Notes: generated from the sequence alone by a model not told the origin. Counted from the stretch's first letter, positions 1,315-38,290 are shown. The stretch is DNA of 64,000 nt from Octopus vulgaris (GCA_951406725.2 OX597834.1:9176001-9240000), one strand, 5' to 3'. A program made the numbers and translations.

Positions 1315-1421
1315 TCAGTGCTTCAGTGATGTTTTGCAAACGAACTCCTATCTGAATCTTCGAGTCAAAGACATCTGTTTCTTAATTTGTATCCTGAAGC
1401 AAATCAGAGCATGATCTATTT
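1315..1421 (+). other. Candidate exon A of the PAC-like locus
   Basis: Poly-T-GCAG acceptor and GTAAGT donor. One frame starts SASVMFCKR (cf. PAC AQLLSCKH), but all three frames contain stops. Confidence 0.3.
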
Positions 1422-1736
1422 GTAAGTAGTTGATTTGTTATTCTTTAGTTGTTCTCTATGCTATTTTCCATAGAGATACGATCAATTTGTATTAACATTT
1501 TCATTATTTTTCATGGATGTAATTATAATTCCTCTATGCTTCTTGTTGCGTTTTTCTAATTACAAACAACAACACTACATCAATGATATTTCAGCGACCG
1601 AAGTATTTAATCGATATATTCAACCTTCACCACTTAAAATATGGATACATTTGTTACATAAGATGACGTGTTTGAATCTCCTTTCGCGTTTCATATAATA
1701 GGGTAGGATTTATAGTTTAAAAACAAATATGAATAT

Positions 1737-2148
1737 AGGCGTAGGAGTGGCTGTGTGGTAAATAGTTTCCTTACGAACCACAGTGATCCGGGTTCAGTCC
1801 CACTGCGTGGCACCTTCTGCAGGTGCCTTCTACTATAGCCTCGGGCCGACCAAAGCCTTGTGAGTGGATTTGGTAGATGGAAACTGAAAGAAGCCCGTCG
1901 TATATATATATATATATGTGTGTGTGTATATATATGTTTGCGCGTCTGTGTTTGTCCTCCCAACATCGCTTGACAACTGATGCTGATGTGTTTACGTACT
2001 CGTAACTTAGCGGTTCGGTAAAAAGGAGCCCGATAGCATAAGTACTAGGCTTACAATGAATAAGTCCTGGGGTCGATTTCCTCAACAAAATGTGGTGCCC
2101 CAGCACTGCCGCTGTCAAATGACTGAAACAAGTAAAAGAGTAAAAGTG
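1737..2148 (+). mobile_element. SINE-A, full length
   Basis: Same structure; ends GTAAAAGAGTAAAAG. Confidence 0.93.
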
Positions 2149-2287
2149 TATGGATCTAATGCGTTTCTTTAAATTCCTGATTGTAAACCATCGGATAAAT
2201 TAAAGGTTTCGGCTCTTTACATTCTTTGACTGTAATGTAATTGTAAAAGTAAAGAACCTTAAAGAAATCTCATTTCTTTCCGTTTAG

Positions 2288-2385
2288 TATATTGTTCAAT
2301 GCTCTCAAGCAGATATCACAACTTTTTCACCTGTCATCGAAAATAAAACCGGAAGAGAGCTCATATTTGCAGGTGAAGATGATCC
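2288..2385 (+). CDS. Candidate exon B of the PAC-like locus
   Basis: TTTCTTTCCGTTTAG acceptor, GTGAGT donor. YIVQCSQADITTFSPVIENKTGRELIFAGEDD aligns ungapped to PAC MNCTTQRINYTDPFSNQTVKSALIVQGPRE (C, I, P, LI, G identical; N-x-T sequon kept, shifted by one). Confidence 0.55.
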
Positions 2386-3606
2386 GTGAGTCATATGAAG
2401 CTGAAATACAAACGTTATTACATTTTCTCATATGAAGTACCCGCAGGTTTTATTTCGGAAACAAATGCATAACAACAGCAATTTCATCTCCACCAACAGC
2501 AACAACAACATCAATTGTGAAATAATGGTTGCGTTGGTGTCAGCAGACCAGTTTAATTTGAACACATTTTCGTCGAATATTTTATTCTTATTCTTGCGTC
2601 TTTTGTCCAAGTCGCATGTCCTTGACACATGCCTTTTATATTCTCGTCACTGCGATAGCCATTACATCCTAAGACAAATGTTAAGAATAATATTGGAAAT
2701 GATTGGATAAAAGAAAAGTAATTTGCAATCACCTCGAGCATTGTGGAGGATATAAAAACGTGCTTACGTACTCCGTTGGAAAAGTGGACTTTGTTATATG
2801 TATATATATATTTATATATATATTTCTTTTTTTGCTTTTCATGATAAAAAGATGAATGTAATAAACTGCATTCTCAACGATATAATGTTAGAAACCATAG
2901 ATGTTAAGAGAAAGTGCTGCGAGAAAATACCGATTCGCACAAAGGTTGTGACTTCGGTAAAGTTAAAATGGTATTTGCCACGGATGAAAAAGCCCGAGGA
3001 ATACAGCATATATTTCTGAGTATGACATTTAATAATTTGCAACCTACAGAGTCGGCTGCGTATCAAAATGTCTGCGATTAATAATCCTGTGTGTTATATT
3101 AGTATTAACATGTAGAAATATAGCAAAATCGATGTTGCTAAAAATTATTCTTACTAATATTACCACACATACAAAAAAAAAAAAGAGAATATTTGGCATA
3201 CGATAAAGTGATATTTTATTACAAACATGTACATTATAAACTCAGTTCTATGTTTTGAATGGGTATTTCCTCATTCCTTCTGATATAAGCACCAGTAAGG
3301 TACGGAGGCCTGGTTATTCAACTGTAAACTTCCAGAGGAATGGTGCACTTACTACAGGAAACTGAAAGTAATATTTTGCAAAAATTGTAAACTGTGAAAA
3401 ATGAAAGAACACCACACAGAAAACACATTGACTAATACAGTTAAATATCTCTACATTTTAAGTTTATATCCAGCAACCGTTGCCTGTGACATAAATCTTT
3501 AGAAATTATAAAATACATGTGGAAATAGTTAACAGTAGCAACAATGAAAGTGACACTGATACACATAGCAAACCGAACATACGCACGCACACACAAATAA
3601 CCTAAT

Positions 3607-4360
3607 GGGTGTTCGGGATAAATTTGACAGTCTGCATAAAAGTGAAAGAAAACTACTACCTTATCTAAAATAAAAAAGTGTTTTTTAGAAAGTAAAAAGT
3701 GTATCAAGTGCATTATGTCTAGGAGATAACAGCTTACTCAATGTAACCACGCTCAGCTTGCAGCACGGCTTCAAGACGGATCCGGAAGCTGGCGTGTATA
3801 TTATTCCTCCCTGTGTCACTGAGAAAATCTTCGAACATCCACTTGTTCTTAGCCACAAGCTTGGCTTTGGTGTTGTATGAAGATCGATTAGTATCTTTCT
3901 CAACTGCGCCCCACATCCATGAGGTTACATTTAGAGTAATTAGGCTGCCAAGAACTGAGCCTAGTGAAGTCGTATAAATTCTCCGACCACTATTGATAGG
4001 TTCCAAAGATGTAGCAAGGAGCCGAACTCTCCTTATCCACATATGTCCTTCCGATAGCAACTCTCTCTAGCCAGCCTTTGAACTCGACCTTTTGTAGCTT
4101 CACATAGCCGTCGTCATTGATCTTTTGTCACTATGCGGATAAATTCCGGCGTGCCGAAACATCCAGAAGGCGTGTTGTGTCTCTTCCTTCTAGTAGTGAC
4201 TTATAGTCTCTGTTGCAGCTGCCCATATCACGTCGTACAAACTTAAGTGTCCACATAGTAAGGAAGAGCATACATGATACCCAGCATGAATCATCAAGAT
4301 ACAGTTTATTTTTCCCATATTCAGATGGCTTACAACCGATCATGTTAAGTATATTTTTCT
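3607..4360 (-). mobile_element. Tc1/mariner-superfamily transposon relic
   Basis: Translation ...WMWGAVEKDTNRSSYNTKAKLVAK...SFRIRLEAVLQAERGYIE* is a typical Tc1/mariner transposase C-terminus; frameshifted. Confidence 0.8.
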
Positions 4361-5964
4361 CAACTTTAGCTTAATCTTTATGATCCTCGACGACATAGAC
4401 TGTTTTTCCAATACATCAAAAGGTTTTTCAACAAATGAGGCATAAAAAGATCAAATTTAGCCAGAAGATCCTTTTAAATCTCACAGTAAAATGCTACATG
4501 TTTCAAAGATATGGGATCGCTCAGAGGCCCACAAACAATCACTCTTCTTGTCCTGCTTTTGTCTCTCATCTACTTAGTGGTCTTTGCTCCTTGAAAATTA
4601 CTATTTTCTTGATATATATACCTAGTCACCATGATACAGTCATTCTATCCCACTGATCTTTCTTATTTGCAAGCTTTAGTCTCACTAGAGTAATCTTTAT
4701 TTACTCCGTAGAACTCTAACCGTTTTAAATTTATTCCTGCCTATATTTTTTGCGGAATCTTTGATTTGAATTTATTCGCAAAATAAATGAAGAATATTCA
4801 CCCCATTTGTGTTTGTGCGACTGCTAAAGCTACGGGAAAGTCCTGTACCTCCAGGAAAAATCTATTAGCAAAGCTTGTGCAGAGGAGGAAATCGTGGACC
4901 CTTTTTCCTCAAAGTATGTCTCATTTTAGATAGAGGTAAAAACCCTTTGTTGTCGAATTATCAAAAGCTTTTAAACCCAACTACATAAATTAGACTTTCT
5001 TACAATTATTGTACTGATAGTCTGTTTCTGCATTTTAATAACAAATCCTTCCAGTATTATTATTTGATTTATTTCATTCTCAGGTCGGTTTTATCAGTAA
5101 CACTCCTATTCCGTCTACTGTCGTTTGCTTTCGGACACATTAAATCATGATTAGCATAAGCTCATCCTTTCTGAATCAGACAAACAATGATTTTTTAAAG
5201 TCAGCTGGAGACATAAAGAGAAAAAATACATTGTAACGTTTACCAACTCAATTCTGTTTTCAGATAATTTAGTTATATCTGTCTGATACAGAGTATCTTT
5301 ATCCTTTTACTTGTCTCAGCCAATTGACTGCGGCCACGCTGAAGCACCACCTATATTTAATTTTTAGGTAGAGTAACATCTCACAGGCCTACCACATACT
5401 GCCAATGTCATTAATTCATCCTTTCCTTAATCATTATTTGAATCAAGTGGATTTATATGAAACGTTACATATTCGGATGAAGACATTACCTTCATTAGTG
5501 ACGTTTCAGTAATTAATGCTTTCAGATATTTGACAGCTATAACTTGATACGTACTTTCCTGATGTCAATACAATTTCCACAGATAATCAAGTCCTCCCAG
5601 TACAAATAATTGTCATTTGTCATTGAGTTTTACTGTAAGATATTAATACAAAGAGATAAACTGTCAAACAAGATGTGCTTCATTTGGAGTAAAATACCAA
5701 TCATAGGCTGAATGAATTACAAAAATGTCTCGTTGTATTAAACGGTTTGACGTCTCTAACATCTGAATTACAAAAGAATATAGAGAACACGTTTAAATGT
5801 CATAAACGCGAGTTCTGAACACGTCTTGAACATCTGGTTTTTATCACGTTTATAGTTGAAGACATATATATATATATGTAATAATAATTTTAGGGAGTAA
5901 ATCCAAACATACAGGGAAAAATTAGATTTAGGATTAAATCTAATTTTACAGTATAAATATAAAT

Positions 5965-6250
5965 ATAAATTAAATTAGAGATAAAACCACTATTAGGCAA
6001 ATCAAACAGTGAAAAACATAAACCAAAACATAGAAATAAAATTAATTAATAAAACGTACAAAATATATAAAAAATAAAATTCAAAATATAAATTATTTAG
6101 ATTTAAAGTTAAAAATTAAAAAAAATTAATTTTGAATTTTATTTTTTATATATTTTGTATATTACATTAATTAATTTTATTTCTATGTTTTGGTTTATGT
6201 TTTTCACTGTTTGATTTGCCTAATAGTGGTTTTATCTCTAATTTAATTTA
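5965..6250. repeat. Long inverted repeat (about 120 bp arms) between (TA)n tracts; probable Penelope-like terminus
   Basis: AAATTAAATTAGAGATAAAACCACTATTAGGCAAATC... pairs with ...GATTTGCCTAATAGTGGTTTTATCTCTAATTTAATTT. Confidence 0.8.
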
Positions 6251-6260
6251 TATATATATA

Positions 6261-6725
6261 TTGTCAATAATAATAAGGGTAAATAAATTAATTAATTAAT
6301 TAATTAGTAATTAATAATTTTACCAAGAAGTGTTCAGTATGTAAAAGGACCATTTACGGTAAATTTAAACATTATTTTATATAATTAGGGTTCAACCAAA
6401 AAATTGCTTCACCACACACCGAACTATTAGAAATAGCAGCCAAAGAATTTGGCTATTTCTTCTACTTTAAGAAGAGACTCCCACATAATGTATACTCAAA
6501 AACATTACACGTAGGTATAGAAGGAAAATAACGAATGTTCGCTCGAAAGATTGATTATTTGTGAACGAACGCGTTTCTGGGTTAGTTATACGTGTAATAT
6601 TTTTCAGTATACATTATCTTGGAGACTCTTCTTAAAGTAGAAGAAAAAGCTAAATTATTTGGCTGCTATTTCTAATAGTTCGCAGTGGGGTAAAGCAACT
6701 TTTTTGCTGAACCCTAATTATATAA
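6261..6725. repeat. Second inverted-repeat element between (TA)n tracts; probable Penelope-like terminus
   Basis: About 6376-6512 pairs with about 6589-6724 (TATATAATTAGGGTTCA...CGAACTATTAGAAATAGCAGCCAAA). Confidence 0.7.
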
Positions 6726-6843
6726 TATATATATATATATAATCCAAACAAGAAAACACACACAAAAAAGAGAAAAAAACACAGCAACGCAGGACGTGGA
6801 ACAATTAAAGTATTATTGACGCTCAGGAAAGAAGGGAAGGAGG

Positions 6844-6878
6844 GTTTAACGTTTCGAGCGGAGCTCTTCGTCGGAAAC
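6844..6878 (-). ncRNA. Minimal type I hammerhead-ribozyme motif in a Penelope-like terminus (about 6741-6950)
   Basis: GTTT-CCGACGA-AGAGC-TCC-GCTC-GAAAC-GTT-AAAC: stem I GTTT/AAAC, stem II GAGC/GCTC, loopless palindromic stem III AACGTT; U4 replaced by C. Confidence 0.65.
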
Positions 6879-7396
6879 AAGGAGAAGGAAAGATCCCAAG
6901 GAGGGAAGACAGAGGAGAAAATATTTGAGCTGGTGGTGCTTAAGAGATCACATATATATAATGTATTTATAAATTTATATATATTTAGATAACGTACAAT
7001 TATTTAAATGACATTTAATTGCTCTAATTTTACAAATATACTGAATAATTTTTCCCACGTTTCTAATCGTATATTTTGTTTCCTGTACGGTGCTAGTTAT
7101 AGTGTCCAAGGTTAATCAACGCAATTATTACTGATGCATTGATTCTAAATTAATGTATTTATCTTGCTATTTAACAATGTGCACATCCGCACATAATTTT
7201 CTAAGTCATAGGCAATGAATAATACGCAAGATCAGGAATTATCTTGCAATATCCACTCCATGGATTTTCTTTATAACTTATCAACAACGATGAAAACCTT
7301 CTAGCTGCTTAGGTTTGTAAAACGCTTAAAATCCTTCTTTAATTTTGGTGCTAGTACGAACTCACGTTTTTGTTAAATGTAATTATAATTATTTAC

Positions 7397-7433
7397 AGGC
7401 GTAGGAGTGGCTCTGTGGTAAGTAGGTTGCTTA
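7397..7433 (+). mobile_element. SINE-A head fragment
   Basis: AGGCGTAGGAGTGGCTCTGTGGTAAGTAGGTTGCTTAC, then an abrupt switch to other sequence. Confidence 0.8.
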
Positions 7434-8200
7434 CTTCCGGTTACCCAGATTGCAACACTAGTTTGTCTGGACTGTTACAGTGAGACGATGTGAATTTCGG
7501 CTCCGTGAATAGAAAAAAAGAAAACTGTCAATTATGGCTCCCTGTAGCGAGCAAAATATTGGGTTCTCATCACCGTAACGGTGAATTGAGAATTTTTGCT
7601 TGAAAATTAGTTTTGTAAATTCTAGTGGGCGTATCTCGCCAGAAAAATAAGAATAAGCCGTTTGGATTACCTTTTTTGGAGTATTATACAAAGGATTCCC
7701 TGTCTGTGCTATTTGTGAGGCTTTTCTTTTACTTTTCCCTTCTATTTTTTCTTTTTTTCTAAATTTTGGTTCATTCTTTTCATTACTTTAATTTCAGTTT
7801 CCCCCCTCCTCTTTTATTTTGTTTTATATTTTATTCGGTTTAATTTTTTGACAGACTGTATTTTAACTACTTTTGAAATGTTTTTTGACATGGCAGAGGA
7901 GGAACTTAAAAAAAAAACTCTGTCTTAGAGTGGGAAATTAATCCGCCTAAGCAGTGGTTAAAAGATATGGAGGAGAAGACGGTGGCACTTAGAACTTGTT
8001 CTAAAGTTCTTAATTCCATCACCGTCTTCCGAATAAAAGTTATTAAAAATGAACTTAAAGACTATTTGTCCTCTTTAAAATATATATTCCTTGGTGTCAA
8101 ACATGCAACCGTACGGTTGCATGTTTGACAACGGGGAAAAGGCTCGCCAGTTTGAGAGTCAGCCTATAGAAGGCAAGGAAATTGATTTGTACATGAATAT
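7432..8200 (+). mobile_element. Possible L1/Tx1-like LINE 5' end (5'UTR plus degenerate ORF1 start)
   Basis: Begins ACTTCCGG, as many L1-clade 5' ends do; T-rich UTR; broken ORF MEEKTVALRTCSK...ELKDYLSSLKYIFLG. Confidence 0.4.
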
Positions 8201-9008
8201 CGTTATTTATAAAATGGCGGCTGGTTGTACTTTTACAAGACTCTACTTTTGCCTATATCCGCACATTTAGTACTGTCATTCACGATTTGTCTCCCTTTCC
8301 CAGTTGCTATATTTCCTCATCTACTGATGTAATTTGTATACTATTTACGCGTCGTTACTTAATGAGTAAGCTTCTCTATACTACTATGTTGTATACTATG
8401 ATCTTAGCACTTCTCTTTTCTATAACAGTCCGTCATATTTTGCATGGTTGAACCATTCCTATCAACATGAACAAAACAGCTGTATTCAATTTCCACACGT
8501 ATCTGGACAGTGCTCTGATATTTCGATTATATTCATTTCTAAACTAGACATTGTGCTGGAGCAAACAACTTTTCGCTTTTAGCTGTCAATTTATCAAGCA
8601 GACTAGCATTTCTCCTTACGCGCTCACGCTACTCACTTGGGAAGCTATCTTTCTTTTATATATAATTGCTTTGCTTAAATATTCACTGTTAAGCATGAAG
8701 AACTCATTAGACCTAAAATTACATTCGGTTATCTGAATGCTATTCTTTTTCACTTCTAAATTTGTTTATTATGCTATGGTGAACATATTTTTTACAGTTA
8801 ACCCATGATGTGATATATTTGAACAATTTATCAAAAGTATAACTCTCTGAACATTAACTTTTGCTTGGGTCTCAGAAGTGGTTAATTACATTCAACTTTT
8901 AATTAGATTACTTTTCCTTTTAGTGATTTGAACGAGATAATTTTCTTTTTCCTAAATGGATGAACTTGCTGTTCCATATTGGGTCGCTTGTACGTATGCA
9001 TCTAAGCT

Positions 9009-10257
9009 AGGGGGACCCAAAAGAAATCGTAATTTTGCCATACTATTTTATTGGCATGGTTTTACATGTTTACACTTTTTTCGCCTTCAAAGTATCCGCT
9101 ATGTGAAGCAATGCATCGGTCCAGACGCATTGTCCACTGTTCGAAGCAGTCCTGGAACTCTTGCGAAGTGATGCCTTTTAACGCCTCTGTCGCTTTTTCT
9201 TGATCTCTTTCTCTGCAAAAGGTTTTCTCTTAAGGATTTTTTTCATTGGGCGGAACAGAAAAAAATTGCAGAGACGGTAGTTAGCAGGATCCTGTTGTCT
9301 TTGGCAAAACTGTCTCTCATTCAGGGCGCATTGACGTGATGAAACTACCGCTCTCCACGTCACCAGAGGTCGGAAAGATTTCGTCGCACCGCGTCTCACA
9401 AACGCTTTAGAACTGTCCAGGGAAATATCTGCTTAGAGGTTTTGACCAGAAGGAACAAATTCTCTGTGAACAATTGCTTTCGAATCGATGAAACATATCA
9501 GCATCGTCTTGATATTAGACTTCATTTGACGCGCTTTTGGCGTGGGAGGCTGGTAACATTGAATACTTCCACTGATTTAATTGGTGCTTTGTTTCCGGGC
9601 CGTAGGCGTAACACCAGCTTCCGTCACCAGTGATGACCTTCGAAAAGTGATTCGGATCAACTCCCAACTGACTGCCTTTGATCTCCAGTGAGCCAGCGAG
9701 GCACACGTTTTTCTGTAACACTTTTCATTCGCAATTCCTCGCTCAAATTTAGTCGGCAGAAGCTCCAAGATGTATCAACCAATTATATCAACAAGTTCGT
9801 CAACTGTTCGTCGACAACCCTCCATCAATTTTCGCGATGATTTTCATTCGTTTAGAATGTTGGTTTTCAAGTGACAAGTGACAATTCCTAAAGCGTGAAA
9901 ACTATTCGTGAACTTATGTTTTGCTGATGGCAGCGTACCTGTGAGATGTTTGAAGCATAAAAACTGTTTTGGCCGCCGTTTTCCCCAGCAGAAAATAGAA
10001 CTTCACGGAGGTGCGCTATTCCTTTGTTCCAGCCATCGCAAACATCGGCGAACAGAAGAGAAACACTGCAAAGCAAAGACGCGTGGCAGTACCACTTCAC
10101 TCGATGCGACGTGGCTGTACCGCTCCACTCGATGACGCTGGGAAGCAGACTAATGCCTGATTATTGCATCAAGTGGCATCGAGCGGCAGAAGCGCGAACT
10201 ACAATGGGCTTTTCTACAGATAACGTTTCTGGTTACTTTTGCGTAACGCTCCCGTAC
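9009..10257 (-). mobile_element. Mariner transposon relic (about 1.25 kb) with decayed transposase
   Basis: VKFYFLLGKTAA (HTH region), FSKVITGDGSWCYAYGPETKHQ (first catalytic D motif), CNFFLFRPMKKILK (SPDLAPxDFFLF motif); degenerate TIRs at both ends. Confidence 0.9.
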
Positions 10258-10544
10258 ATACATTCTGAAATTTATTGGTACGTACAACGTGAATGCCAAG
10301 CAGAAAAGCATGGACATGTAGTTTCCAAATTTCTGGTAGAGGGAATTGCGTCATGGTGTTGTTTTTCTCACTAACGGTGACCAACTAACATTACTATACT
10401 GTGTAGCAGACAAACTGAAACTAAAAAAAAAAAACGATGCGCATGCGACAAATTACCCATCGCCTCCTGTATACTATATATGAGGGTTATATGGTGGGTA
10501 TGTATTAGAGAAGTGAAGAAGAGAATTTTTGCTGAAATCATATT

Positions 10545-10760
10545 AAATGAACTGGCAGAATCGTTAGCAAGCCGGACAAAATGCTTAGTAAATAGCCCGC
10601 CTTTACGCTCTGAGTTCAATCTCTACCGAGGCTGACTTTAACTTTCATTCATTACGGGAGGTAGACAAAATAGTTACTAGCTGGACGCTAGGATCGCTGT
10701 AATCGACCTATTCTCTCCTTCAAAATATCAGGCCTAGCACCTTTAGTAGAAAGGATTATC
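10545..10760 (+). mobile_element. Old SINE-B-related copy (B')
   Basis: CTGGCAGAATCGTTAGC head, TGAGTTCAA B-box, tail ...GTAGAAAGGATTAT. Confidence 0.75.
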
Positions 10761-10770
10761 GTTATTATAT

Positions 10771-11338
10771 GAAGGTACATGACTCAGTGCTTAGAGTCAG
10801 ACTCATAATCATGATATAGTGTGCTTGTTTTTCGGACCGAGCAGCGTAGTCTGTTCTTGAGCGAGTCACTTTATTTCACGTTGCTGCAGTTCCCTCAACG
10901 GTAGTAAGGCGGCAAACTGGCAGAAACGTTAGCACGCCGGGCGAAATGCGTAGCCGTATTTCGTCTGCCGTTACGTTCTGAGTTCAAATTCCGCCGTGGT
11001 CGACTTTGCCTTTCATCCTTTCGGGGTCGATTAAATAAGTACCAGTTACTCACTGGGGTCGATATAATCGACTTAATCCGTTTGTCTGTCCTTGTTTGTC
11101 CCTTCTGTGTTTAGCCCCTTGTGGGTAGTAAATGAGTTGCGACGTCACTGGTACCCCGATGTATCTGCCTTTCTCTTGCCCTTGGAAAACATCGATGGCG
11201 TGGAGAGAGGAGGCTGGTATTCATGGCCGACTGCCGGTCTTCCATAAAGACATTTCCCTGGACTTCTACCTCGAAGGGGAAAACATTCTAAGTGCAATCC
11301 TACGGATATTCATCACCGAATGGTGTCTTTACCCTTTA
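10771..11338 (+). mobile_element. SINE-D, interrupted by SINE-B
   Basis: Flanks are colinear with the uninterrupted copy at 53402-53765. Confidence 0.8.
10908..11131 (+). mobile_element. SINE-B nested in SINE-D
   Basis: GGCGGC...GAGTTCAAATTCC...GCCTTTCATCCTTTCGGGGTCGAT...; GGTAGTAA on both sides. Confidence 0.92.
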
Positions 11339-11787
11339 CAAACGCATTCGTTCCACAATCAAATACAAACAGGTAAGTTGCTGTATAATACTCTTTGATT
11401 TTGCAGTAGGAAATAATTCGAATGATAGAATCCAATCCCATTATGGTAGAAGGTATTATTGAAACCGAAAGGAAATGTGTACAGAAACAAGTCATTACAC
11501 CCGAAATGTTACTGTATCCTATAAGCACCATTTTATAATTCACCCTTAAGTATTGTAACATCCATCTTAATTGGCCTTTGCTATAGCAGACAAAGCATAT
11601 ATTTATTTCACTCATTCACAGTAACATTTCTCCTCTTCACTTTACATTAATTCACGCATAAAGAATTTTATTTTAGGTTATCACGAATTGGAAATTTGTT
11701 GCAAGTATATAAACAGCAATAAAAACACTGGCAATAGAGTGTTTGCGTCTGGTTTTCTTCTGTTTAACTCTTTCTGTGCTGAACACA

Positions 11788-12185
11788 TCTTTATATATAA
11801 AAGTCAAGTTCTGTGTCTGTCTCCTACGATTTAGATTCCTAACTACTCCCATATTTTGCGGTGCAGTTTAACCAAAACCGGATATCTTATAGTCGTGATA
11901 CATATCGAGCCCTTCTGGGTATTAGCGTGCGTCTACGATGAGTCTACGATTTTTTTTTAAATCACCATAATTTTTTACCATTTTAATGCATTTTTTCGCT
12001 ATTATATAAGGGAAGTAACTCTCTAAAATGTCTACGATGAGTCAACGATTTAAAAAAAAAATTTACCATCATTTTTTTCCCCATTTTTAATGCATTTTTT
12101 GGCTATTTTTTGGCTATAACTCTCTAAAAATGCTTATATAGTTATTTCCCTTACAAACCCGAGCAACGCCGGGCGATACTGCTAG
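11788..12185 (+). mobile_element. Non-autonomous Helitron
   Basis: 5' TC, 3' CTAG, hairpin CCCGAGCAACGCCGGG near the 3' end, inserted at A|T with no TSD; near-identical copy at 62775-63175. Confidence 0.9.
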
Positions 12186-12362
12186 TAGTTATATAAGCTG
12201 AATAAGTTTATGCTAGACATACACAACCTTTACTAATTATCTTCACTTTTCTTTCTGATATATTTTTTATCATCATTCAACAAGGTCAAAAAGTATGCTA
12301 TGGAATAAATTAGTGTGTATGTGTGTTATTGTGCGTGTGTTTGCGTGTCTGCTCGTGTATTT

Positions 12363-12408
<46 letters not shown>

Positions 12409-12411
12409 AGC

Positions 12412-15889: not shown

Positions 15890-15931
<42 letters not shown>

Positions 15932-23835: not shown

Positions 23836-23879
<44 letters not shown>

Positions 23880-25721: not shown

Positions 25722-26182
25722 GCAATATTCTCTGGAAGATCAGCCTAGATTTACATTTATCTATCTCCTACAGTTTTCACTCACCATGCTCCCTCCAACA
25801 GCATATCATATAATTTCAAATTCCGACTTCAGCTGCAGCAAGTTTTACGCCTCTGCATCCTCTTGTACTCTACCAGATTCAATCAATTAAATATATGGCC
25901 AAATATACGCTTTCATTTCTCCTATTTCACACTTTTTACAGGGAGCATATTCTATAGATAAGAAATAATGGATATGGAGACAAACTCAAAAACATTAAAA
26001 CGGAAAACAGTATCATTTTCAAAAGGTTTAAACTGGAGTCATAAACTATATTTTAAATGTGATGTAAAGAAAATTTCTATAAAAATTCATTTGAAAATAG
26101 TTATCTTTTGAGCCTTAACTTACTCTGAAATTATGTTTGCACCTAAAGTGCTTATATTTTAGCACATAACGTTCACTCTCAG

Positions 26183-26361
26183 CGTGATAGATATTAAGTT
26201 CAGAGCCATTTACAATATTGAAAAAATCGGGAAAATATTCAGATTGTACTACACTCCAAAAATCCACACCACGCAAATACTGAAGAGGAACAAAATCTCG
26301 AAATGGTTCGAAACTGGTTCGAATTAGCTCCAGGGCAACGCTCATGGTTTTCTCTGCAATT
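26183..26361 (+). CDS. Candidate exon C of the PAC-like locus (needs +1 nt in the A6 run)
   Basis: TTCACTCTCAG acceptor, phase-compatible with exon B; GTAAGT donor. VIDIKFRAIYNIEK / NRENIQIVLHS...NWFELAPGQRSWFSLQL versus PAC LVFLQFR...SAIDYLLFS...SSWKFSGGFRTWVKMSL. Confidence 0.55.
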
Positions 26362-26403
26362 GTAAGTGACGTTGCTTTCAGTGTAGTTATGTATTACTCT
26401 CGC

Positions 26404-26781
26404 TTTACTCTCCTTTACTTGTTTCAGTCATTTGACTGCGGCCATGCTGGAGCACCACCTTTAATCGAGCAACTCAACCCCGAGATTGTTATTCTTTTGT
26501 AAGCCCAGTACTTATTCTATCAGTCCCTTATGTGAAACTGCTAAGTTACATGGACGTAAACACACCAGCATCGGTTGTCAAGCAATGCTAGGGGGACAAA
26601 CACAGACACACACACGCATATATATATATATACATATATACGACGGGCTTCTTTCAGCTTCCGTCTACCAAATCTACTCACAAGGCTTTGGTCGGCCCGA
26701 GGCTATAGTCGAAGACACTGGCCCAAGGTGCCACGCAGTGGTTGGTAAACAAGCTACTTACCACACAGCCACTCCTGCGCC
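26404..26781 (-). mobile_element. SINE-A
   Basis: Near full length, B-box region deleted. Confidence 0.92.
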
Positions 26782-27479
26782 ACTGTGACGAACATCAAAA
26801 CTGGTGACTTTTTACTGCATATATTTGCCACAGTTGCAATTTCGACACGGTTTCCAGTATTAAATCACTCATTTAGATATATTAACGATGCATTTATTTC
26901 TAGAATACCGTATATAATGGCATAACGACGCATTTAATTTCTAGTGCTCATACATATTTTCTACCACCCCAATTTTGGAAATGGCTAGTGAGTAAGAATT
27001 CTGACATTGAAAACGTATGTAAGAGCAATTGAAACGAACATTGTATTTAAAGAAACTATGCAATTTAGAGGATTCATTTTTATGCTAGTCACACATCTCT
27101 GAGTACCCATATTTTATCGTGAGTTTTAGTTTCCAATTTTAAGTTTTAAGTTAATGCTATGATATCTCAAATAATGGTTTAGTATGAAGTTCCGAGAATT
27201 TAATACGATTCAGGATTGAATTATTAAGACGGTGTAAAATTTGTAATATAGTAAATATTGATGATAGAAGTAACATTCGTCTAGTGCCACGAGAGGGTGA
27301 GGTTGATTTTCTTCATATATTCTTAAAATACATTTTGGGGCGAATGATTTAAAGGGAGATACTTAGTAAGAAGGAACTGTTATGTCCCTTGCTTTTGCAA
27401 AGGTTATCCTATATTTTGAGGTATCAGCACGAATTGTAAAATTTCAAATTTTGACAGGTCAGAAAATTCGGGGTAGGGG

Positions 27480-27825
27480 GTAAGTCGATGATATCGACCC
27501 CAGTCCTGAACTGGTACATATTTTACTAGCTCTGAATAAAAGGCACCATCGATCTCGGTGGAATATGAACTCAGAAAGTTTAGATAGACGAAATACCTAT
27601 TTCTTTACTACCCACATGGGGCTAAACACAGAGAGGATAAACAAGGACAGACAAACGGATTAAGTCGATTATATGGACTCCAGTGCGTAACTGGTACTTA
27701 TTTAATCGACACAGAAAGGATAAAAGGCAAAGTCAATCTCGGCGGAATTTGAACTCAGAACGTAGCGGCAGACGAAATACAGTTAAGCATTTTGCCCAAC
27801 GTATGCATTATGCCAGGTCGCCGAC
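27480..27825 (-). mobile_element. SINE-B joined to a B' body (dimer-like)
   Basis: Junction AAAGAAATAG|GTATTTCGTC on the minus strand at about 27598. Confidence 0.85.
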
Positions 27826-27869
27826 TTTGAATCTATCTAATATTGGTTTCAAATTTTTGCTCAATTTTC

Positions 27870-28015
27870 TAGGAGGGGGTAAGTTAATTAAATCCACCCC
27901 AGTGCTCACCTGGTATTTAATTTATCAATTCAGAAAAGATGAAACGCAAAGCCGACGGAATTTGATCTCAGAACTTAAAGACGGACAACAATGCGGTAAC
28001 TTTTCTGCCAGTTCA
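27870..28015 (-). mobile_element. Old B' SINE
   Basis: ACCCCAGTGCTCACCTGGTA...GGAATTTGATCTCAGAAC. Confidence 0.7.
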
Positions 28016-29069
28016 GTGTGATTCAATCGAAAAATATTTATACCGTTTAATAAATAGATAGAAAAAGAATGTTGCTAAAATGGAATGTTACTAAAATGGA
28101 AAATATCTTTACGTTCAAATAATTATAATAAAGTTAGAAAAAAAGGGAAACAGCATAAGACTCGAATACTGAGTTACATTAATCATATGGAAAATATTTT
28201 ACTTCGAATTTTTATGGCCATTACACTAATTCTGCATTACAATGAAGAAAAGTATACCCAAAGTTAAATAAATTAGCTTGTGATTTTGTATATGTGTTAG
28301 CGATAACACACAGCTTGGAAGTTCGAAGCGAAAACGATCGTTGTCTAGGGAACAGAAACATAACAAAAGCGGTCATACGCTAAGTTCTTGTAACAGAGAA
28401 GAGATTAAATGTTGAAAACTGAAGGAAAATATTACTGTTAAGTAAGAATGTTTACAAGAAAGAATTACACTTGATTACACGATCTTATACTATGAAGACG
28501 GTGATAAATATTCGTTAGCCTAACGAAATAAACTTGCTTAGAAATGTGTGAGTGTTCAAGACGGTCAATTGCTACACTTGTAAATTGTGCTAAGCTCCAG
28601 ATTTGCTTACAGAAAATAAGCAATGGGGAGGTAAAGATTATGTGAACATCATGCAATAATTGTAAGAAAATTAATTGAAATACTGAGTATTGCTTCACGG
28701 GGGGTTATCAGATGGGAAAATGTAAGTCGAAAATATATGCAGCAGAGTGAAATAAATGCAGCAGAGTGAAAATAAAGATAAGGATGTTTCAATGTAAGAT
28801 TATTCATGTAAATCACTAAATTGCAAAATTCTGTATTAGGAAAAATCTATATTAAAAGAAAAAGAAGGAAAACTTAAACGGTTTTGGTTGTAGGTGAAAT
28901 TTACCAGAGAAATGAAACAGTAGAGGAAATAGTATGAGCTAAAAATTAATATTCAATTGAAATACGTTTTCTGAAAATAGCAGGGAATTTAGTCACTGAT
29001 ATTACATAGTTGATTAAAATGGTTAAATCTACATTCGTAAATACATATATTACAATAACCGACTCTAAA

Positions 29070-29488
29070 AATGTCTCTCTCTCTCTCTATCTGTCTCTAT
29101 CTTTGTCTGTCTCTCTCCCCACCACACACACTCTCTCTCTCACTGTACCTCCCTATAAGTGTATATATACGTATGAATGTCAGTGTATACATATCTATGT
29201 ATATACATATATATGTACATACATACATACATACATACATACATACATACATACATACATACATACGTGTGTGTATGTATGTATGTATGCATTGTTTGTA
29301 TAACCGTTTGTGTACAAGCATTAGCATGTAACTATGCAAGTATAACAACAGCCATACACACATATCTATAGGTAGGCTGTAAGGTAGATACACAGATATA
29401 GAAATAGATAGATAACTAGATATATACATAAAATGTGTATTTATATATAAAAAATCGGCGGAGATACCTAATTAGAGACTAAGGATAT

Positions 29489-29545
<57 letters not shown>

Positions 29546-29550
29546 TATCC
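29070..29550. repeat. Compound (CT)n/(TACA)n/(CA)n/(TA)n microsatellites
   Basis: Seen directly. Confidence 0.9.
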
Positions 29551-29816
29551 GCACTGTTTAGCAAGCATGCTTAACCTAGGTGATTATCTACAGGTACAAG
29601 TATCAAGTTGCTAATCACAGGAAGGTTCTTAAGAATATGTTCTTTTATATTCAAAAGAAAACTTACGACACCAATTCTTTTTTTTTTTTTTTTCGTCTCC
29701 TCATTATTTCAACTGCAGTAACCACTCAAGATCTGTTTCTGATATCGCAACTATTTTGCCCTTCCTTGTTATTCAATCATCAGTCACATATCTGACACTT
29801 TGCTTTTCACCAACAG

Positions 29817-29919
29817 ATTTACGTTTATTCTTACTAGACGCGCATTTCATTGTTACGCAACCATCAATAAACAGTTTTGCAAGACCGTCTACCAATTAGA
29901 TGTAGATTATATTCTAAAC
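29817..29919 (+). CDS. Candidate exon D of the PAC-like locus
   Basis: TTTGCTTTTCACCAACAG acceptor, GTAAGT donor. Open and phase-compatible with exon C (FTFILTRRAFHCYATINKQFCKTVYQLDVDYILN). Another frame at the 3' end (TVLQDRLPIRCRLYSK) fits PAC TKEEDGREAVEFRQETS better, so the frame is uncertain. Confidence 0.4.
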
Positions 29920-30638
29920 GTAAGTCCTGCTTTATCGTTGCAAGAATATCTACCAGCCACCGAAGCAATCACGCCCAACTTGTAATTCGGATTATCAAAA
30001 TATAATCGAATTTTAACCGTTGAATACTAACCATTCGAGGACAGGTTTTAACACATATGGCTCTCTAAGACCCTCGAATAGCATATGATGGTTGCCCCCT
30101 CGTTATCGAGTATGGCCATTGCACGAAGCTTAACCGTTATTGGTGCTGTGATCGAATGTGACTTTTATTTGCTTTTTAAGGCTACAGCCAACCATTCAGC
30201 TGAGACTCACAGCACCATCACCAATCATAAACAGTGTTATCGTGCAATGCCTGAACAAGAAGATTTTTTAAAGTGAGGAAAGGCTGTGCACTGAGTCCAT
30301 CCCACTCACTAAGCAACATCAGCCATAATCCAAGATGATGTTGTTGACTCGAATAGAAAAACTGTAGGTAAATAGAGAGATTTCCTCATAATCTATAAAA
30401 ACATTTTGAATGCTAGCGATTGAACGCGTTACGTAAGTTAAGCTACTTGAAAGCATAAGGGTCACTATCACCCTATTTAATCCGCTGAAAAACATTAAAT
30501 AACTGTAGAACGTGATTTGTAAAGTTATAGGACGCTGAAATAAAATTAAGTGAAAACTCAATCCTAGAATCTATAGATGTTTGCTTTCTACCATTTAGTG
30601 AGGATGCACAAAACGTTAAACATATTATATGTAATATT

Positions 30639-31013
30639 AAGGCGGCGAGCTGGCAGAAACTTCAGCGCGCCGGGCGAAATGCGTAGCCATATTTCGTCTG
30701 CCGTTACGTTCTGGGTTCAAATTCTGCTGAGGTCGACTTTGCACTGGGGGCGATGTAATCGATTTAATCCGTTTGTCTGTCCTTGTTTGTCCCCTCTGTG
30801 TTTACACCCTTGTGGGTAGTAAAGAAATAGGCATTTCGTCTGCCGTTACGTTCTGGGTTAAATTTTCCGCCGAGGTCGACTTTGCCTTTCATCTTTTCGG
30901 CGTCGATAAATTAAGTACCAGTTAAGTACTGGGGTCTATGTAATCGACTTAATCTGTTTGTCTGTCCTTGTTTTTCCCCTCTATGTTTAGCCCCTTGCAG
31001 GTAGTAAAGAAAT
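30639..31013 (+). mobile_element. SINE-B dimer
   Basis: Second unit starts at the internal GCATTTCGTCTGCC (30831); flanks share TATGTAATATT. Confidence 0.9.
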
Positions 31014-31951
31014 ACATTTATGTAATATTTTGTATCTTTGCACTTATACCAAATGCTCAGACCTATAACACACTTCTCTTTAGATACGAATTATTTACAT
31101 ACAACATAACGACTTTTAAACAATTATACTTCATCTGCTACTATTAAAAGTTTCTTTATACCCGAACTAAGGTAATCGTGGCTTTCTAAGTACTAGATCT
31201 TATAATTTTGAAATACATCTAGAGGAGATATTGTCCATAAATAACTGAAGACGAATGAATTACAACTAACGATATTTATGTCCTTTAGAAACGATAGTAT
31301 TGTATGCGTTCAGGAGTCGATAAATTAAAATTTTGGCGACTTATTGTTTGAAGAGAGTTGGTATGGCTTCTTCTAAAGTGTTAAGCATGCGTTTAGTATT
31401 TTCAGTTGAATTGCAAATGTGAGTTGTGCGTCTCGAAACTATTCTAAATACTTTAAATTAACTCCATTCAATTATAAATGATTGCAGGAAATGTAAAGAA
31501 ATTTTTATAAGATATGAAGAGTAAACTTATCAAACTCTCCATAGAAATTCCCAGTTATGTATATAAACGATATTTCCATCGTAATTACTTCATTTTAATG
31601 AATTCAAATATTAATTTACTTCGTTTATATAATTAGATGTAATTTTATAAACATAAATTTCATGTTATGCATACTTTCTGGGGTCGATTGTACTGACGTA
31701 GCCCTTCTCGTGAAACCACTGCTGTTGTGCCTAATTAAGAATAATTATTATAATTATTATAAATTTCCTATTATACAAAACTTTGCCAATCGTATTTCCA
31801 ACTTTTGGTACTTCAAACTGTTTAATATCTTGATAGGGATCTAATTGGTGATATTCTCCTGCTATGAGCCTCTGTTTAGTAATTTCTACCCCACCTCAAA
31901 CTTCTGACCGTACGTCTGTTTAAATCATTGTTGTTCTCAAACATTTTCTAT

Positions 31952-32335
31952 ACTCTTTTACTCCTTTACTTGTTTCAGTCATTTCACTGTGGCCATACTG
32001 GAGCACCGCCTTTAGTCGAGCAAATCGACCCCAGGACTTATTCATTGTAAGCCTAGAACTTATTATATCAGTCTCTTTTACCGAACCGCTAAGTTACGGT
32101 GACGTAAACACACCCGCATCGGTTGTTGAGCGATGTTGGTAGGGCAAACACACATATATATACATATATACGACGGACTTCTTTCAGGTTCCGCTTTCCA
32201 AATCAACTAACAAGGCTTTGGTCGGCCCGAGACTATAGTTGAAGACACTTGCCCAAGGTGCCACGCAGTGGAACTGAACCCGGAACCATGTGTTTGGTAA
32301 ACAAGCTACTTATCACACAGCCACTCTTACGCCTA
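31952..32335 (-). mobile_element. SINE-A, full length
   Basis: As other copies. Confidence 0.93.
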
Positions 32336-32470
32336 TATTTAAAGTGTTAGTATAAGAACAATTTTAGAATTATATCAAATATTATTTTAAGAACGATTAT
32401 ATGAAACACTCCATTTTAATTCCTACATCTTAGACTTGAATTTAACATGTTCTGTTTAAATTTCAATGAG

Positions 32471-32799
32471 TCATCTAAAAGCATAAGGCCGGTTTCTCAG
32501 TTTGCATGGCAGATACATTCCTCGCCTAGACGAGAACTCCAGTCTCTCGCACGATGCCGGACCTGCCGGGTGACAGGTTGCGCGATCGCCGGCGAGGCGA
32601 CTTTCCGATGCCCGGTCGAATAGGGGGGCACTGCAGCGTGCATAGAAGCTGCGGGTGCGAGCACGGATGAAGCCGACCGCGGGTACAGATCTCGGTGGTA
32701 GCATTTTGCTCAAGAACACATCGCATCGCCCAGTCCTTGAATCGAAACCACAATCTTACGATCATGAGTCCAACACCCTAACCACTAAGCCACGCACCT
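32471..32799 (-). mobile_element. SINE-E (tRNA-derived, D-like head) with its centre replaced by foreign sequence
   Basis: Head GGTGCGTGGCTTAGTGGTTAGGGTGTTGGACTCATGATCGTAAGATTGTGGTTTCGATTC...TTCTTGAGCAA. Confidence 0.8.
32552..32703 (+). pseudogene. 28S rRNA fragment
   Basis: GC-rich island; GAAGCCGACCGCGGGTACAGATCTCGGTGGTAG matches the conserved LSU segment GGAGCCGCCGCAGGTGCAGATCTTGGTGGTAG, and upstream CGAATAGGGGGGCACTGC...GAAGC matches CGAGTAGGAGGGCCGCTGC...GAAGC. Confidence 0.82.
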
Positions 32800-32933
32800 G
32801 ACTTCCCTTATTAACCAGTCAATAATATCAGATAGTGGATTACAAAGATCGCAAACATTTCGAATGCTCACAATTTCTGCATTCAGTTACACGTAGTGAA
32901 TTTTAGTTTCTCTTAAGTCGCTATTTGATGTTA

Positions 32934-33319
32934 GGAGGCGCAATGGCCCAGTGGTTAGGGCAGCGGACTCGCGGTCATAGGATCGCGGTTTCGATTCCCA
33001 GACCGGGCGTTGTGAGTGTTTATTGAGCAAAAACACCTAAAAGCTCCACGAGGATCCGGCAGGGATGGTGGTGATCCCTGCTGTACTCTTTCACCACAAC
33101 TTTCTCTCACTCTTACTTCCTGTTTCTGTTGTACCTGTATTTCAAAGGGCCGGCCTTGTCACTCTCTGTGTCACGCTGAATATCCCCGAGAACTACGTTA
33201 AGGGTGCACGTGTCTGTGGAGTGCTCAGCCACTTACACGTTAATTTCACGAGCAGGCTGTTCCGTTGATTCGGATCAATCGGAACCCTCATCGTCGTAAC
33301 CGACGGAGTGCTTCCATCC
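32934..33319 (+). mobile_element. SINE-C1, full length
   Basis: TGGCCCAGTGG A-box, TTCGATTCC B-box; TSD ATTTGATGTTA. Confidence 0.94.
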
Positions 33320-33858
33320 ATTTGATGTTAACATAAGTCATTAAGAATCTCTTTTGACAATAGATTTAATTGAATTCTATCATGAATTATAAGTTGAAAT
33401 TCAGACAATCGCGATCTCTTAACCATTTCCATCAAAACAAGTTCAAATCAATCCCAAATATTCATAAGTGTGGTTTTTATTTTATCTCTTGTTTTTTTTT
33501 TTTTTTCGAAACTATTTAAAAAAAAAAACTATTTCTGTTTAAATTCTTTACATTTTTATTGTAAATATTTATCTCAGTAGCATATTTTAAAATATTACTT
33601 ATTGTTTGCGGTTCTCATACATTTAAGAACACTTATATTAACGTATATACTCTGTGAATATGTTTTCAATAATTTTCTTCAACTTTTCCTATTTCCATCG
33701 TTTTCCCTTTTCAACAGTTCTTGCTGTCAGTTTCTTAAATTATTTTCGGTTTCTTTTTCATAATCACAATATTTTTCTACTAATCTTAGTTTAGACTTCT
33801 CGATTCCACACTCTTTCTATATATTTAATCTATCTCTCACATCCCCTCTGTATGTATG

Positions 33859-33891
<33 letters not shown>

Positions 33892-35519
33892 GTATCTTTC
33901 TGTCCTTTATAACTCTTATCTCGCAGTAGTTCTCCTCTGTATATCGAGATATCTTGGTATTCTTTCACACAAACTCATTCTCTCACTACGCCCCTTTCTC
34001 GCTATTCTCTTATCTAGCTTTCTATTGATACAAAAAAAAAAAATAACAGATAAACACATACACGTACTTGTCCATCTGTGACTCTCTTTTCCTTTCTCAC
34101 TGTTGCACGCATGCGCTCACACTTCAACGTTCTTTGTCTAGTAACCACCTATCTCTCTGTTTCCATTTCATTAACTCTCTCTCCAAAACTCGCTAATATA
34201 CTCTATATATAAACATATTTTTGCCAGAGTATTTCACTAACTCATTTCTTCTGCTCTCTCTCTCTCTCATTTTCTCACTCTCTCCCTCCCTTCATCATTT
34301 CTCAGTATCGCATATATTTGCTATAAAAATTCTATTCCTCTCTTTCTGAAAACATACATAAATGCAATCCCACCTTCTACCTATGCTTCTGACTCTCTTT
34401 CTCTCACAGTTGGAATCAGCCTGTCCCTTTTCTTTTACTCTCTATATATTTAAACATACATCTTTCTCCCTCTCTCTCACTCTGGTGTTGCTTACCCCCC
34501 GTCCCTACTCTATATCTATTTATTTCTGAGAGCAGTTTTATAAATATAACTTGTTTTATCTCTATTGCTTCAAGAACATTTTGAACATTTGTACCGATTT
34601 GCTGAAATATTTTTCTCCTCCATAATCTCAGATAACATCACGCTGCTTCTATTTCTGAGAAAGTAACGGTGAATTTATGGAATAACGCCAGCAATATTGG
34701 TAACCTACCAGGGATTCAAAGGAGACTTGTCGCGTTTTGTTAGTAAAGTTAAAAGTAATAAAAGAAGAAAATAAAAAGAAAAACAATACAATTCTAGTAA
34801 AATTTGGTAAACAATATTTAATCTTAAAGGAGACTGTTTGATAAATAAATTTTTAGATAAACATTATATTATTGTAAGGTATTTCTAGTATTGGCACAAG
34901 GCCACACACTTTGTGAAAGTAGGATTGGATTATATCGACAATCAATATTAGACTGGTACTTTATATTATCGACCCCATGAGAATGGAAGTCTACGTCCAG
35001 CGATAATATATATTAACACACACAAGCATACTTGTGTATAATAACCTCTGTGGGTTTGAATTAGAAGTTTTGTGCTATTGTTATAATTTTAGAAACTGTT
35101 TGACTTCAGATTAAAAACGTGATGGCTTAGACTTGTTGTCAAAGCAATTCCGGAACTGACAATCCCCTCTCTTGCTTTTGCTCAGGGAACCAAGTCATAT
35201 ATTAAACAAAGTGCTTTATACTACTTTGAAGAAATTTAGGCGTGATTTGAGGGAGAGGTAGGTTATTTTTGTCACTTCGAGCGACAGCAGGAAGGTTCAT
35301 CCTACGATTAATTGTATTGCTCTCTGGATGCTATGAACAAAGATATAATCACATTCATTCCAGTTATGACAATCCTCTCGAATTCTGTATCCAGTTTTAT
35401 TTTTGCCAACGTGTTCCTTTCAAATTTTATGTATGTATCTATTTATCTAGAGTCCCAAAATATACAAAATGAACGCATACATACATACATACACAGGCAT
35501 ATATATATTCTTTTTTTTA

Positions 35520-35727
35520 TATTCCTTTACTTGTTTGAGTCATTAGACTGCGGTCATGCTGGGGCTCCGCCTTGAGGAATGTTTGGTGGAACTAATCGAT
35601 CCCGGTACATTTTTTGAAGCCGGATATTTATTGTACCAGTCTCTTTTGCTGAACCACTAGTTTATGGGGACGTAAGCACAAACTAGAAAACACACACATA
35701 CATATATACACACACACACACATATAT

Positions 35728-35775
<48 letters not shown>

Positions 35776-35945
35776 GTATATGCACACAGATATATAGATA
35801 TATAAATACAACGAGCTTCTTTCATTTTCCAATTACTAAAACCATTCACATGGCTTTGGTCATACCGAGGCTATAGTAGAAGACACTTGCCCAAGGTGCA
35901 ACGCTGTGGGTCTGAACCCGGAACCCTGCGGCTGCGAAGTAAGGC
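35520..35945 (-). mobile_element. SINE-A, diverged
   Basis: Both halves around an expanded (CA)n(TA)n. Confidence 0.85.
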
Positions 35946-36211
35946 CTTTGCATAGTTTACAATGCAATTTTACTCATAAAGCATTGGTTAACTCGTATGT
36001 GTTCTGCTTCAGTTTCCTCCATGTGGTTCTTACATGTCAATAATTATGCTTATGCATTTTAATATGCATCTGCGTAAGAGACGTTAAAGCGTAGGATACA
36101 ATACCATGCCATATATGTTACTGATCAACCTCAATTCAGGTTCTAGTGATATTAACATTACTGCAGATATGTTCACAAGTGATACAAAGTAGCAGGTGTC
36201 ACTGTTGGTCT

Positions 36212-36612
36212 GACAGAATTGTTAGCACGCCGGGCGAAATGCTGAGCGGTATTTCGTCTGGCGCTACGTTCTGAGTTCAAATCCCGCCGAGGTCGATTTT
36301 GCCTTTCATCCTTTCGAGGTCGATTAAATAAGTACCAGTTACGCACTGGGGTCGATGTAATCGACTTAATCCGTTTGTCTGTCCTTGTTTGTTCCCTCTG
36401 TGTTTAGCCGCTTGTGGGTAAAGAAATAGGTATTTCCTCTGCCGCTACGTTCTGAGTTCAAATCCCGCCGAGGTCGATTTTGCCTTTCATTCTTTCGAGG
36501 TCGATTAAGTAAGTACCAGTTACGCACTGGGGTCGATGTAATCGACTTAATCCGTTTGTCTGTCCTTGTTTGTTCCCTCTGTGTTTAGCCCCTTGTGGGT
36601 AGTAAAGAAATA
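36212..36612 (+). mobile_element. SINE-B dimer
   Basis: Two near-identical units of about 180 bp; junction AAGAAATAG|GTATTTCCTCTGCC at 36430. Confidence 0.92.
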
Positions 36613-37056
36613 AGAATCGTTAGTGTGTAGGAGGTGATGTTTTGTGGTGTGGTGACACTAATCCGTTATCGGCTTTTGAGTAAAAATGTTCTCCATCGAC
36701 ATCAACAACTTGAAGAACTGCAATGTTCTTCTCTTGAACAACTGCGTGTCTTCCACAAAATTTAAAAAGTACAAATATCCATTTGTAGGTACTCACATTT
36801 TTTATTAGAAAACGAAAATGACCATTGATGTTTCATTGCATGCGTGCTTTTCGTTTTAGCTCTGACAAATTATAGATATTAACAAAGACTTTCCAGCCGT
36901 AACCATCCACTTCATTATTTGTATATTACTTTCTTTTTTTAACATTCTCGGTCTTTGAATACCATCTTCAAGGATTTAGTTAATCATATTGATCTCCCTA
37001 CTTACTTTATCGAACCAGTAATTTTCATGAGATAAAAGTACAGAGCAAAAACAGGT

Positions 37057-37226
37057 ACACACACACAAACACACACACACACACATTCTCCCTCTCTCAC
37101 ACACACACACACACTCTCTCTCTCTCTCTCACACACACTCTCTCCCTCTCACACGCACACACACTCCCTCTCTCTCACGCACACTCTCTCCCTCTCACAC
37201 ACACTCTCTCTTTCTCTCTCACACAC

Positions 37227-37260
<34 letters not shown>

Positions 37261-37302
37261 TCACACACACACACACACACTCTCTCTCTCTCACACACAC
37301 TC

Positions 37303-37333
<31 letters not shown>

Positions 37334-37370
37334 CGCACGCACATACACACACACGCAAACTCCTACACAC
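37057..37370. repeat. Compound (CA)n/(CT)n microsatellite
   Basis: Seen directly. Confidence 0.95.
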
Positions 37371-37594
37371 AGACCCATATTCACTCAAACGTTGGTAAGT
37401 AAATCTACGACTTTATCTGCTTCATCAGGCTTCAATATGTGGCTCAAAGACTAGAGCAACAACAACAACAACTATGAACAAGCAGACCATCTAAAATCGA
37501 ATTCCGAAATGCCTTAATGGCATGCATAAATCAGTGCTGATTGTACATTCCTCTTGAAGGTTTCGCCGTCGCTATTTGGTCTTTCATAAACCAG

Positions 37595-37714
37595 TTGTGA
37601 ATTCAATAAATTAATTTCCCCGTCCTTTGATCCTTCTATTTGAAAATGTAACTTTGTTTATTAAACACTACGAGGACAGAATTTCATTACATTGCATAGT
37701 CTTTATTTGTCTCG
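37595..37714 (+). CDS. Candidate exon E of the PAC-like locus (in-frame TAA)
   Basis: CCAG acceptor, G|GTATGT donor. VNSIN*FPRPLILLFENVTLFIKHYEDRISLHCIVFICL versus PAC VNYIDQRP...LFFVVFEWKDPFIQKVQDIVTANPWNTIALLC (FE, FI, D in exact register). Confidence 0.45.
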
Positions 37715-38231
37715 GTATGTATGGCATTACCTAGGATATATATATATATATATATATATGTGTCTCTGTGTGTGTGAAATATATTTGGTATACTGTGGAG
37801 TTCGTAACATTTTTTTTTCTTGCGTGTGTATTAACACACTTAAGTGAAGTTAGCTGTACGCCGACTAAGAATTCAAAGCATAATACTAGTTTCCCAGTAT
37901 TTAAAGTAAATATACGGTATCATTAGTATCAATTCGCCAAAGATTTTCGCACTTCTTCTCCACCAAAGAAGCTTAGTAATTACTGGTGTGTATATTTACT
38001 AGATTTATGTATTTCTTGTGATTAGAGTGAAGGTGCAAAGGTATATAATACAGGGGAATTAATGTGGATGTTCATATCTCCGTAAAAATACAATATTTCC
38101 GGAAGATGAAATAGATGATTTTTTTTTCCATTATATAAGAACAGGATGAATATTGGAGGAAGGTCATTGAAATGTAACTCATTGATAGAATCTGAATATT
38201 TTTTTTCTATTTAATAATTTTTTTTTTACAG

Positions 38232-38290
38232 AATTGATGTCTGATCATTATAAATGGCGTGTACAAAGATCGCATAGACATAGATTATAA
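38232..38290 (+). CDS. Candidate terminal exon of the PAC-like locus
   Basis: Poly-T-ACAG acceptor, phase-compatible with the exon E donor. (E)LMSDHYKWRVQRSHRHRL* versus PAC EFAKLSIKWMIKIRKRYL. Confidence 0.45.

Follow-up and report, generated by a model that had tools for sequence, protein, structure and literature searches.

A broken multi-exon locus in Octopus vulgaris, probably the relic of a PAC/ENaC-fold channel gene

A stretch of Octopus vulgaris DNA carries a series of exon-like segments whose motifs and order recall two families of channels, namely PAC (PACC1/ASOR/TMEM206, PF15122) and DEG/ENaC/ASIC (PF00858, with the molluscan FaNaC group). The window, meaning the whole stretch of 64,000 nucleotides that was analysed, corresponds to G000:C21:9176001-9240000 in a 2.8-Gb genome, and repeats occupy about one third of the region. 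The locus is not an intact gene. On balance, it is best explained as a single-copy pseudogene of a thumb-less channel with the PAC/ENaC fold, and ancestry within the PAC/ASIC fold has modest independent support. A more tentative proposal is that it represents the fossil of a protostome PAC/TMEM206 orthologue or a new intermediate between PAC and DEG/ENaC with a thumb made of one disulfide loop. Even within the pseudogene reading, a PAC orthologue in the strict sense is doubtful. The original prediction, a divergent PAC-family gene, thus survives only in its ancestry, for which an upstream segment and profiles favouring segment C and the exon order speak. A living gene is not supported: segments Z, A, C and E and the join of D to E are broken, and the break in C is also found in DNA contigs of the same species.

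Seven segments make up the proposed locus (positions without a prefix are those of the window):
Segment Z, L004:562-712 = G000:C21:9166562-9166712, plus strand: TM1-like, flanked by AG and GT, outside the window.
Segment A, 1315..1421, plus strand: flanked by AG and GT, with the strongest acceptor of the set (12.0) and the donor gtaagt.
Segment B, 2288..2385, plus strand: flanked by AG and GT, two frames open, with the C..I..P..LI..G motif.
Segment C, 26183..26361, plus strand: flanked by AG and GT, with palm-like IVLH and FELAPG..RSW motifs and a frameshift.
Segment D, 29817..29919, plus strand: flanked by AG and GT, with a single open frame.
Segment E, 37595..37714, plus strand: flanked by AG and GT, with a pre-TM2 strand (LLFE..FI..D) and the start of a TM2-like helix.
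Segment F, 38232..38290, plus strand: a terminal exon-like piece with an acceptor, KW and a basic tail, ending in TAA.

The splice dinucleotides are intact at all 13 sites of these segments, and B to F, which had been predicted as splice-flanked, are all present with the dinucleotides claimed for them. In its junction frame, segment A opens with a post-TM1-like SVxxCxxxP motif. Segment D continues the 3' frame of segment C without a phase break and carries two Cys spaced nine residues apart, followed by TVY, which is likely a vestigial thumb. Peptides from B, the 3' frame of C and E found only their own locus when searched against the genome, except for one further match to the peptide of E, which is due to chance. 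When E is read past its donor (window 37715-37870), it yields GMYGIT and a stop; a TA/TG microsatellite comes next, followed by a second hydrophobic stretch. By eye, GIT in this read-through lies at the same distance from an upstream YE as the GIS filter of FaNaC, and TM2 may once have continued past the E donor rather than splicing to F.

The reading frame is interrupted throughout. The 5' part of segment C, with the FR motif, is read in the frame from 26184, which is halted by a TAG near the end of the exon; the 3' part, with the IxxxLxS and GxRxW motifs, is read in the frame starting at 26222, and the switch falls at an A-run near 26220-26226. The joins of B to C and C to D had been described as phase-compatible, which is correct only if the frame changes inside C, where the frameshift had been overlooked. 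The join of D to E is out of phase, as had been noted from the beginning. From Z to F, the junction phases run 1, 0, 2, 2 and, after the D-E join with no defined phase, 1. Segment E has a TAA at 37612 within its motif frame, no frame of segment A is open (the junction-compatible one is stopped three times, at 1353, 1383 and 1395), and segment Z has an in-frame TAG after 29 hydrophobic codons. Altogether, the independent lesions number five or more. Joined end to end, the seven segments including Z span 817 nt and contain 14, 12 or 16 stops depending on the frame, and any subset kept in order opens 97 codons at most.

The exons for TM1 had been expected upstream of the window, and when 100 kb upstream were added to the search, a segment of the right kind was found. 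Segment Z is separated by 9.4 kb from the first base of the window and by 10.7 kb from segment A, and with a hydropathy of up to 2.98, it is clearly TM1-like. It ends in phase 1, both of its donors give the phase that is needed, and this phase carries through A into the motif frame of B. Only two exon-like segments of TM grade occur in 164 kb when both strands are counted, and Z is the better of them; by our estimate, chance would yield such an upstream, in-phase TM1 segment in about 2-3 of 100 cases. The distance from the register of Z to the Cys of segment B presumably equals that in human PAC, with no net gap, if the PAC residue is taken to be C149. A possible N-terminal exon before Z (L005:7627-7785) was unconvincing. 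Aligned without gaps to the TM1 of human PAC as given in part of the supplement to PMC6663466, Z shows 4 of 23 identities (F66, L69, L70, L77) and differs at the other 19 published positions; any two Leu-rich helices might show as much.

The most serious competing explanation, and a real if not the leading possibility, is chance: AT-rich, unique, non-coding DNA in which splice-like sites and channel-like motifs were picked post hoc. Segments flanked by splice sites of comparable quality are plentiful: the plus strand of the window contains 127 exon-like candidates at the weakest scores of the real segments. One source of false exons is a very abundant short repeat, which yields exon-like pieces of about 68 bases with AG and GTAAGC on both strands (copies at window 26414-26498, 31979-32046, 44842-44909 and elsewhere). 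The PAC-like motifs occur in the predicted order when the read-through model is used, but motif chains of this kind fall within the range of unrelated proteins. Chains of identities with unrelated proteins reached 140 versus 83 for the earlier motifs scored by hand (13 decoys), about 220 versus 48 in a second comparison (240 decoys), and 111, again above the hand-scored motifs, on a fixed path; these nulls are too lenient for so distant a relation, and the comparison values were hand-scored from motif letters and, in the second comparison, from published TM residues. The higher scores of unrelated chains mean that the motifs alone prove nothing. A coding signal is likewise absent. Codon-pattern scores are at the level of non-coding DNA, and the model frames contain 6 stops against a null mean of 6.9. 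An apparent codon periodicity (p 0.014-0.05) was lost when the frames were selected in the way used for the model. Against chance stands the position of segment Z, at the predicted place and in phase, and the codon test cannot tell a real gene with 15% decay (11 +/- 8.5) from noise (1 +/- 10.5).

Searches for homologues gave the same blank picture, and the match to the TMEM206 or ASC family that a PAC-like gene might have produced did not appear. The 11 single-exon peptides had no relevant match in Pfam, with none to PF15122 or PF00858; five queries against the PDB returned no PAC chain, only chance matches (E 0.15-1.6); and no homologue was found among 1.84 billion representative sequences, which favours chance. 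Two word searches and a search of the ESM Atlas found no homologue, and a metagenome scan gave 345 pattern matches, none of which was confirmed. These blank results are weak, because the queries were 29-59 residues of probably decayed sequence. Searching the genome with the PF15122 and PF00858 profiles gave no match inside the window. The two PF15122 matches elsewhere (E 0.5 and 2.8), considered as a possible paralogue, are, in one case, a broken frame that is probably retroelement-like and, in the other, noise. The DEG/ENaC family matches lie on other contigs of the genome. They include an intact, intronless FaNaC-like gene at L014:315-2357 (G000:C24:45924000-45926800), which is 97% identical to the FaNaC of Octopus bimaculoides, and at least five further loci on C3, C14, C20 and C26 of G000, with two in opposite orientation on C26. 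Among the open reading frames listed for 214 kb around the locus, the neighbours searched for synteny were repeats only. Retroelement remnants lie at L011:6497-7879 and in L001, one of them with an open frame of 357 codons; we assume that both are reverse-transcriptase-like. Elsewhere in G000, tandem arrays of single-exon 7tm_1 receptor genes were seen at C11:25.49-25.74 Mb, C18:46.08-46.46 Mb and C6:114.61-114.70 Mb.

Profiles were built from 75 DEG/ENaC proteins and compared with the X-read-through join of 273 residues, referred to as the model. The score of the model against the full profile was -3.1 bits, which many shuffles exceeded, and short core blocks gave p values of 0.04-0.12, with -17 bits for the TM2 block. 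Across 214 kb in six frames, exon C ranked first of 17 pairs above 7 bits for the palm VH..PG pair (12.0 bits; runner-up 11.4; true family members 33-73). The finger, thumb and knuckle were then cut from the alignment because PAC, according to a passage in PMC7904269, is without the extra extracellular elements of ASIC; this core cut was picked once likenesses had been noticed by eye, and it was one of several variants tested. In local mode, 339-373 and 109-117 of 3000 controls scored as high as the model (4-12%). Glocal scoring over the whole length was discarded, as it ranked the reversed model above the model itself. Extracellular glocal scoring with the Forward algorithm placed 1 of 1200 shuffles at or above the model, along with 3 of 1200 random non-coding sets and 12 of 600 shuffles in ten-residue blocks; none of the 719 other exon orders did as well. 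With Viterbi, the corresponding counts were 5-7 of 1200 shuffles, 22-23 of 1200 random sets, 3-4 of 719 exon orders, and 61 and 42 of 600 block shuffles. The reversed model scored -8.6 versus -3.3 for the model in Forward and slightly above the model in every Viterbi run.

In the alignment to the core profile, the 3' part of segment C, D and E fit with one inserted residue; the placement is poor for segment B and for the 5' part of C. SVxxC..P in A, F..APG in C, the Cys pair and TVY in D and LFE in E all fall on their family counterparts. The model shares 28 identities with the family consensus, and the reversed control shares 22. Taken together, the profile signal amounts to weak, order-dependent support that is suggestive, not decisive. 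The equality of model and reversed control in Viterbi favours chance, as does the finding that contig pieces containing segments C and F are as divergent from relatives as intron pieces are. On the other side, the exon order is the best of 720 in Forward, C is the top site in 214 kb, and the profile was independent of the earlier reader of the sequence.

A different and improbable explanation is that the exons are genuine but belong elsewhere, for instance to a spliced non-coding RNA or to a decayed gene for an unrelated membrane protein, and that they resemble a channel by accident. The strong acceptor of segment A and the consensus intronic donors would agree with this, and so would splice sites that stayed intact while the frames broke. 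However, no Rfam match was found in the window, and the order-dependent profile signal would be left unexplained.

Sequencing reads show how the locus varies. Exon C is contained in 8 of the 24 runs listed, and four were compared over positions 26000-38400; the differences given here are among those listed for them. The X1 contig (organism A, which may be the assembly's own sample) has one differing letter and no gaps relative to the window over 26000-26432, and X2 is also without an indel at 26220, so an assembly error does not account for the frameshift in C. In X3 and X5 (organisms B and C, two relatives), one base is missing at 26220, and the frame from the main acceptor still meets a stop. 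At 26334 and 26346, G>T changes, present in X3, X5 and part of the depth of X2, turn the Gly of the motif into Val and its Trp into Leu; segment D in the X2 contig is identical to the window. The sequence changes freely among close relatives, and the locus is most likely inert at present. Among the 24 runs listed, none was an RNA run containing exon C, a result that is neutral as to expression.

An intact, working PAC-family gene, with breaks that are assembly errors or are repaired through RNA editing or alternative splicing, is very improbable: the splice sites are unbroken, the lesions in Z, A and E are known from the assembly alone, and by hand, the deletion of organisms B and C together with a donor at 2372 (segment B) and an acceptor at 26204 (segment C) would open a path from B to C, but the frameshift in C is present in organism A contigs, segment D is unchanged in X2, the Gly and Trp of the motif vary among close relatives, A-to-I editing cannot mend frameshifts, and the independent lesions number at least five.

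If the locus is a pseudogene, as is preferred here, the segments would once have been exons of one gene. Its product would have been a subunit of about 270-300 residues with two helices and a reduced finger and thumb, belonging to a channel of the PAC/ENaC fold that was presumably a trimer, like PAC and ASIC. Segment Z would have encoded TM1, segments A to E the beta-sandwich extracellular core, with D replacing the thumb by a small loop closed by Cys, and segments E and F TM2 and the basic tail. Function would have been lost before organisms A, B and C split. In an old pseudogene with many lesions, 13 intact splice dinucleotides out of 13 are somewhat unexpected. If the relic is that of a true protostome PAC orthologue or of a PAC-DEG/ENaC intermediate, PAC-type channels would predate the split between protostomes and deuterostomes and would have been lost in this octopus lineage, and they should survive intact in other molluscs. 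Because the locus is broken and its kinship is unproven, its value is that of a pointer for a targeted search.

Comparison with known systems shows likeness to both families. The inferred size and two-helix layout, with a compact extracellular part, would be like those of PAC, whose extracellular domain has about 210 residues. By eye, human PAC E224, R237 and W239 as well as E286 and D297 are in register, as are L309, C311, F314 and L317 of TM2 on segment E. Ten positions of human PAC (S228, S229, W230, K231, K241, K288, D289, Q293, V295 and Q296) are unmatched in C and E. Relative to human PAC, segment D presumably adds about 11-15 residues with the Cys pair. Unlike PAC, the locus is without an open frame. 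In the pore region, the TM2 crossing glycine G312 and the filter lysine K319 are without a clear counterpart (in the best register, position 312 is Ile and position 319 is not Lys), and the TM2 of the model is about 12 residues short; its mean hydropathy never reaches 1.2, and a Gly at the TM2 crossing appears only when reading continues beyond the donor of E. The TM2 of PAC is itself less hydrophobic than its TM1, according to part of PMC6663466.

On the distribution of PAC, the available passages diverge. One in PMC6663466 gives orthologues in vertebrates and the hemichordate Saccoglossus only, and one in a preprint restricts PAC to deuterostomes (10.1101/2022.06.28.497943), a discussion that was removed in review from the journal version, as far as the excerpt of PMC10507113 goes. 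PMC10529583 calls PAC broadly found in animals, and the species named in its passages are vertebrates. Within the portion of the literature covered, no paper on a mollusc PAC was found, and PAC-like mollusc entries may already exist in databases.

As for DEG/ENaC channels, the model has less than half their length and is without room for their Cys-rich finger and thumb. Segment D has only two Cys, and the di-glycine motif of their TM2 is missing; a GIT at the distance of the GxS filter appears only in the read-through of the E donor, just before the stop. The post-TM1 SVxxC, the palm PG, C..C..Y and the pre-TM2 strand nevertheless align in order, and the palm VH motif lands on exon C in core-block, pair and cut-core scoring. 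A passage in PMC7904269 describes the likeness between PAC and ENaC as structural, without a link in sequence. A mollusc relic that resembled both families would suggest that protostome relatives are still alive and that the anion and cation channels are bridged in sequence.
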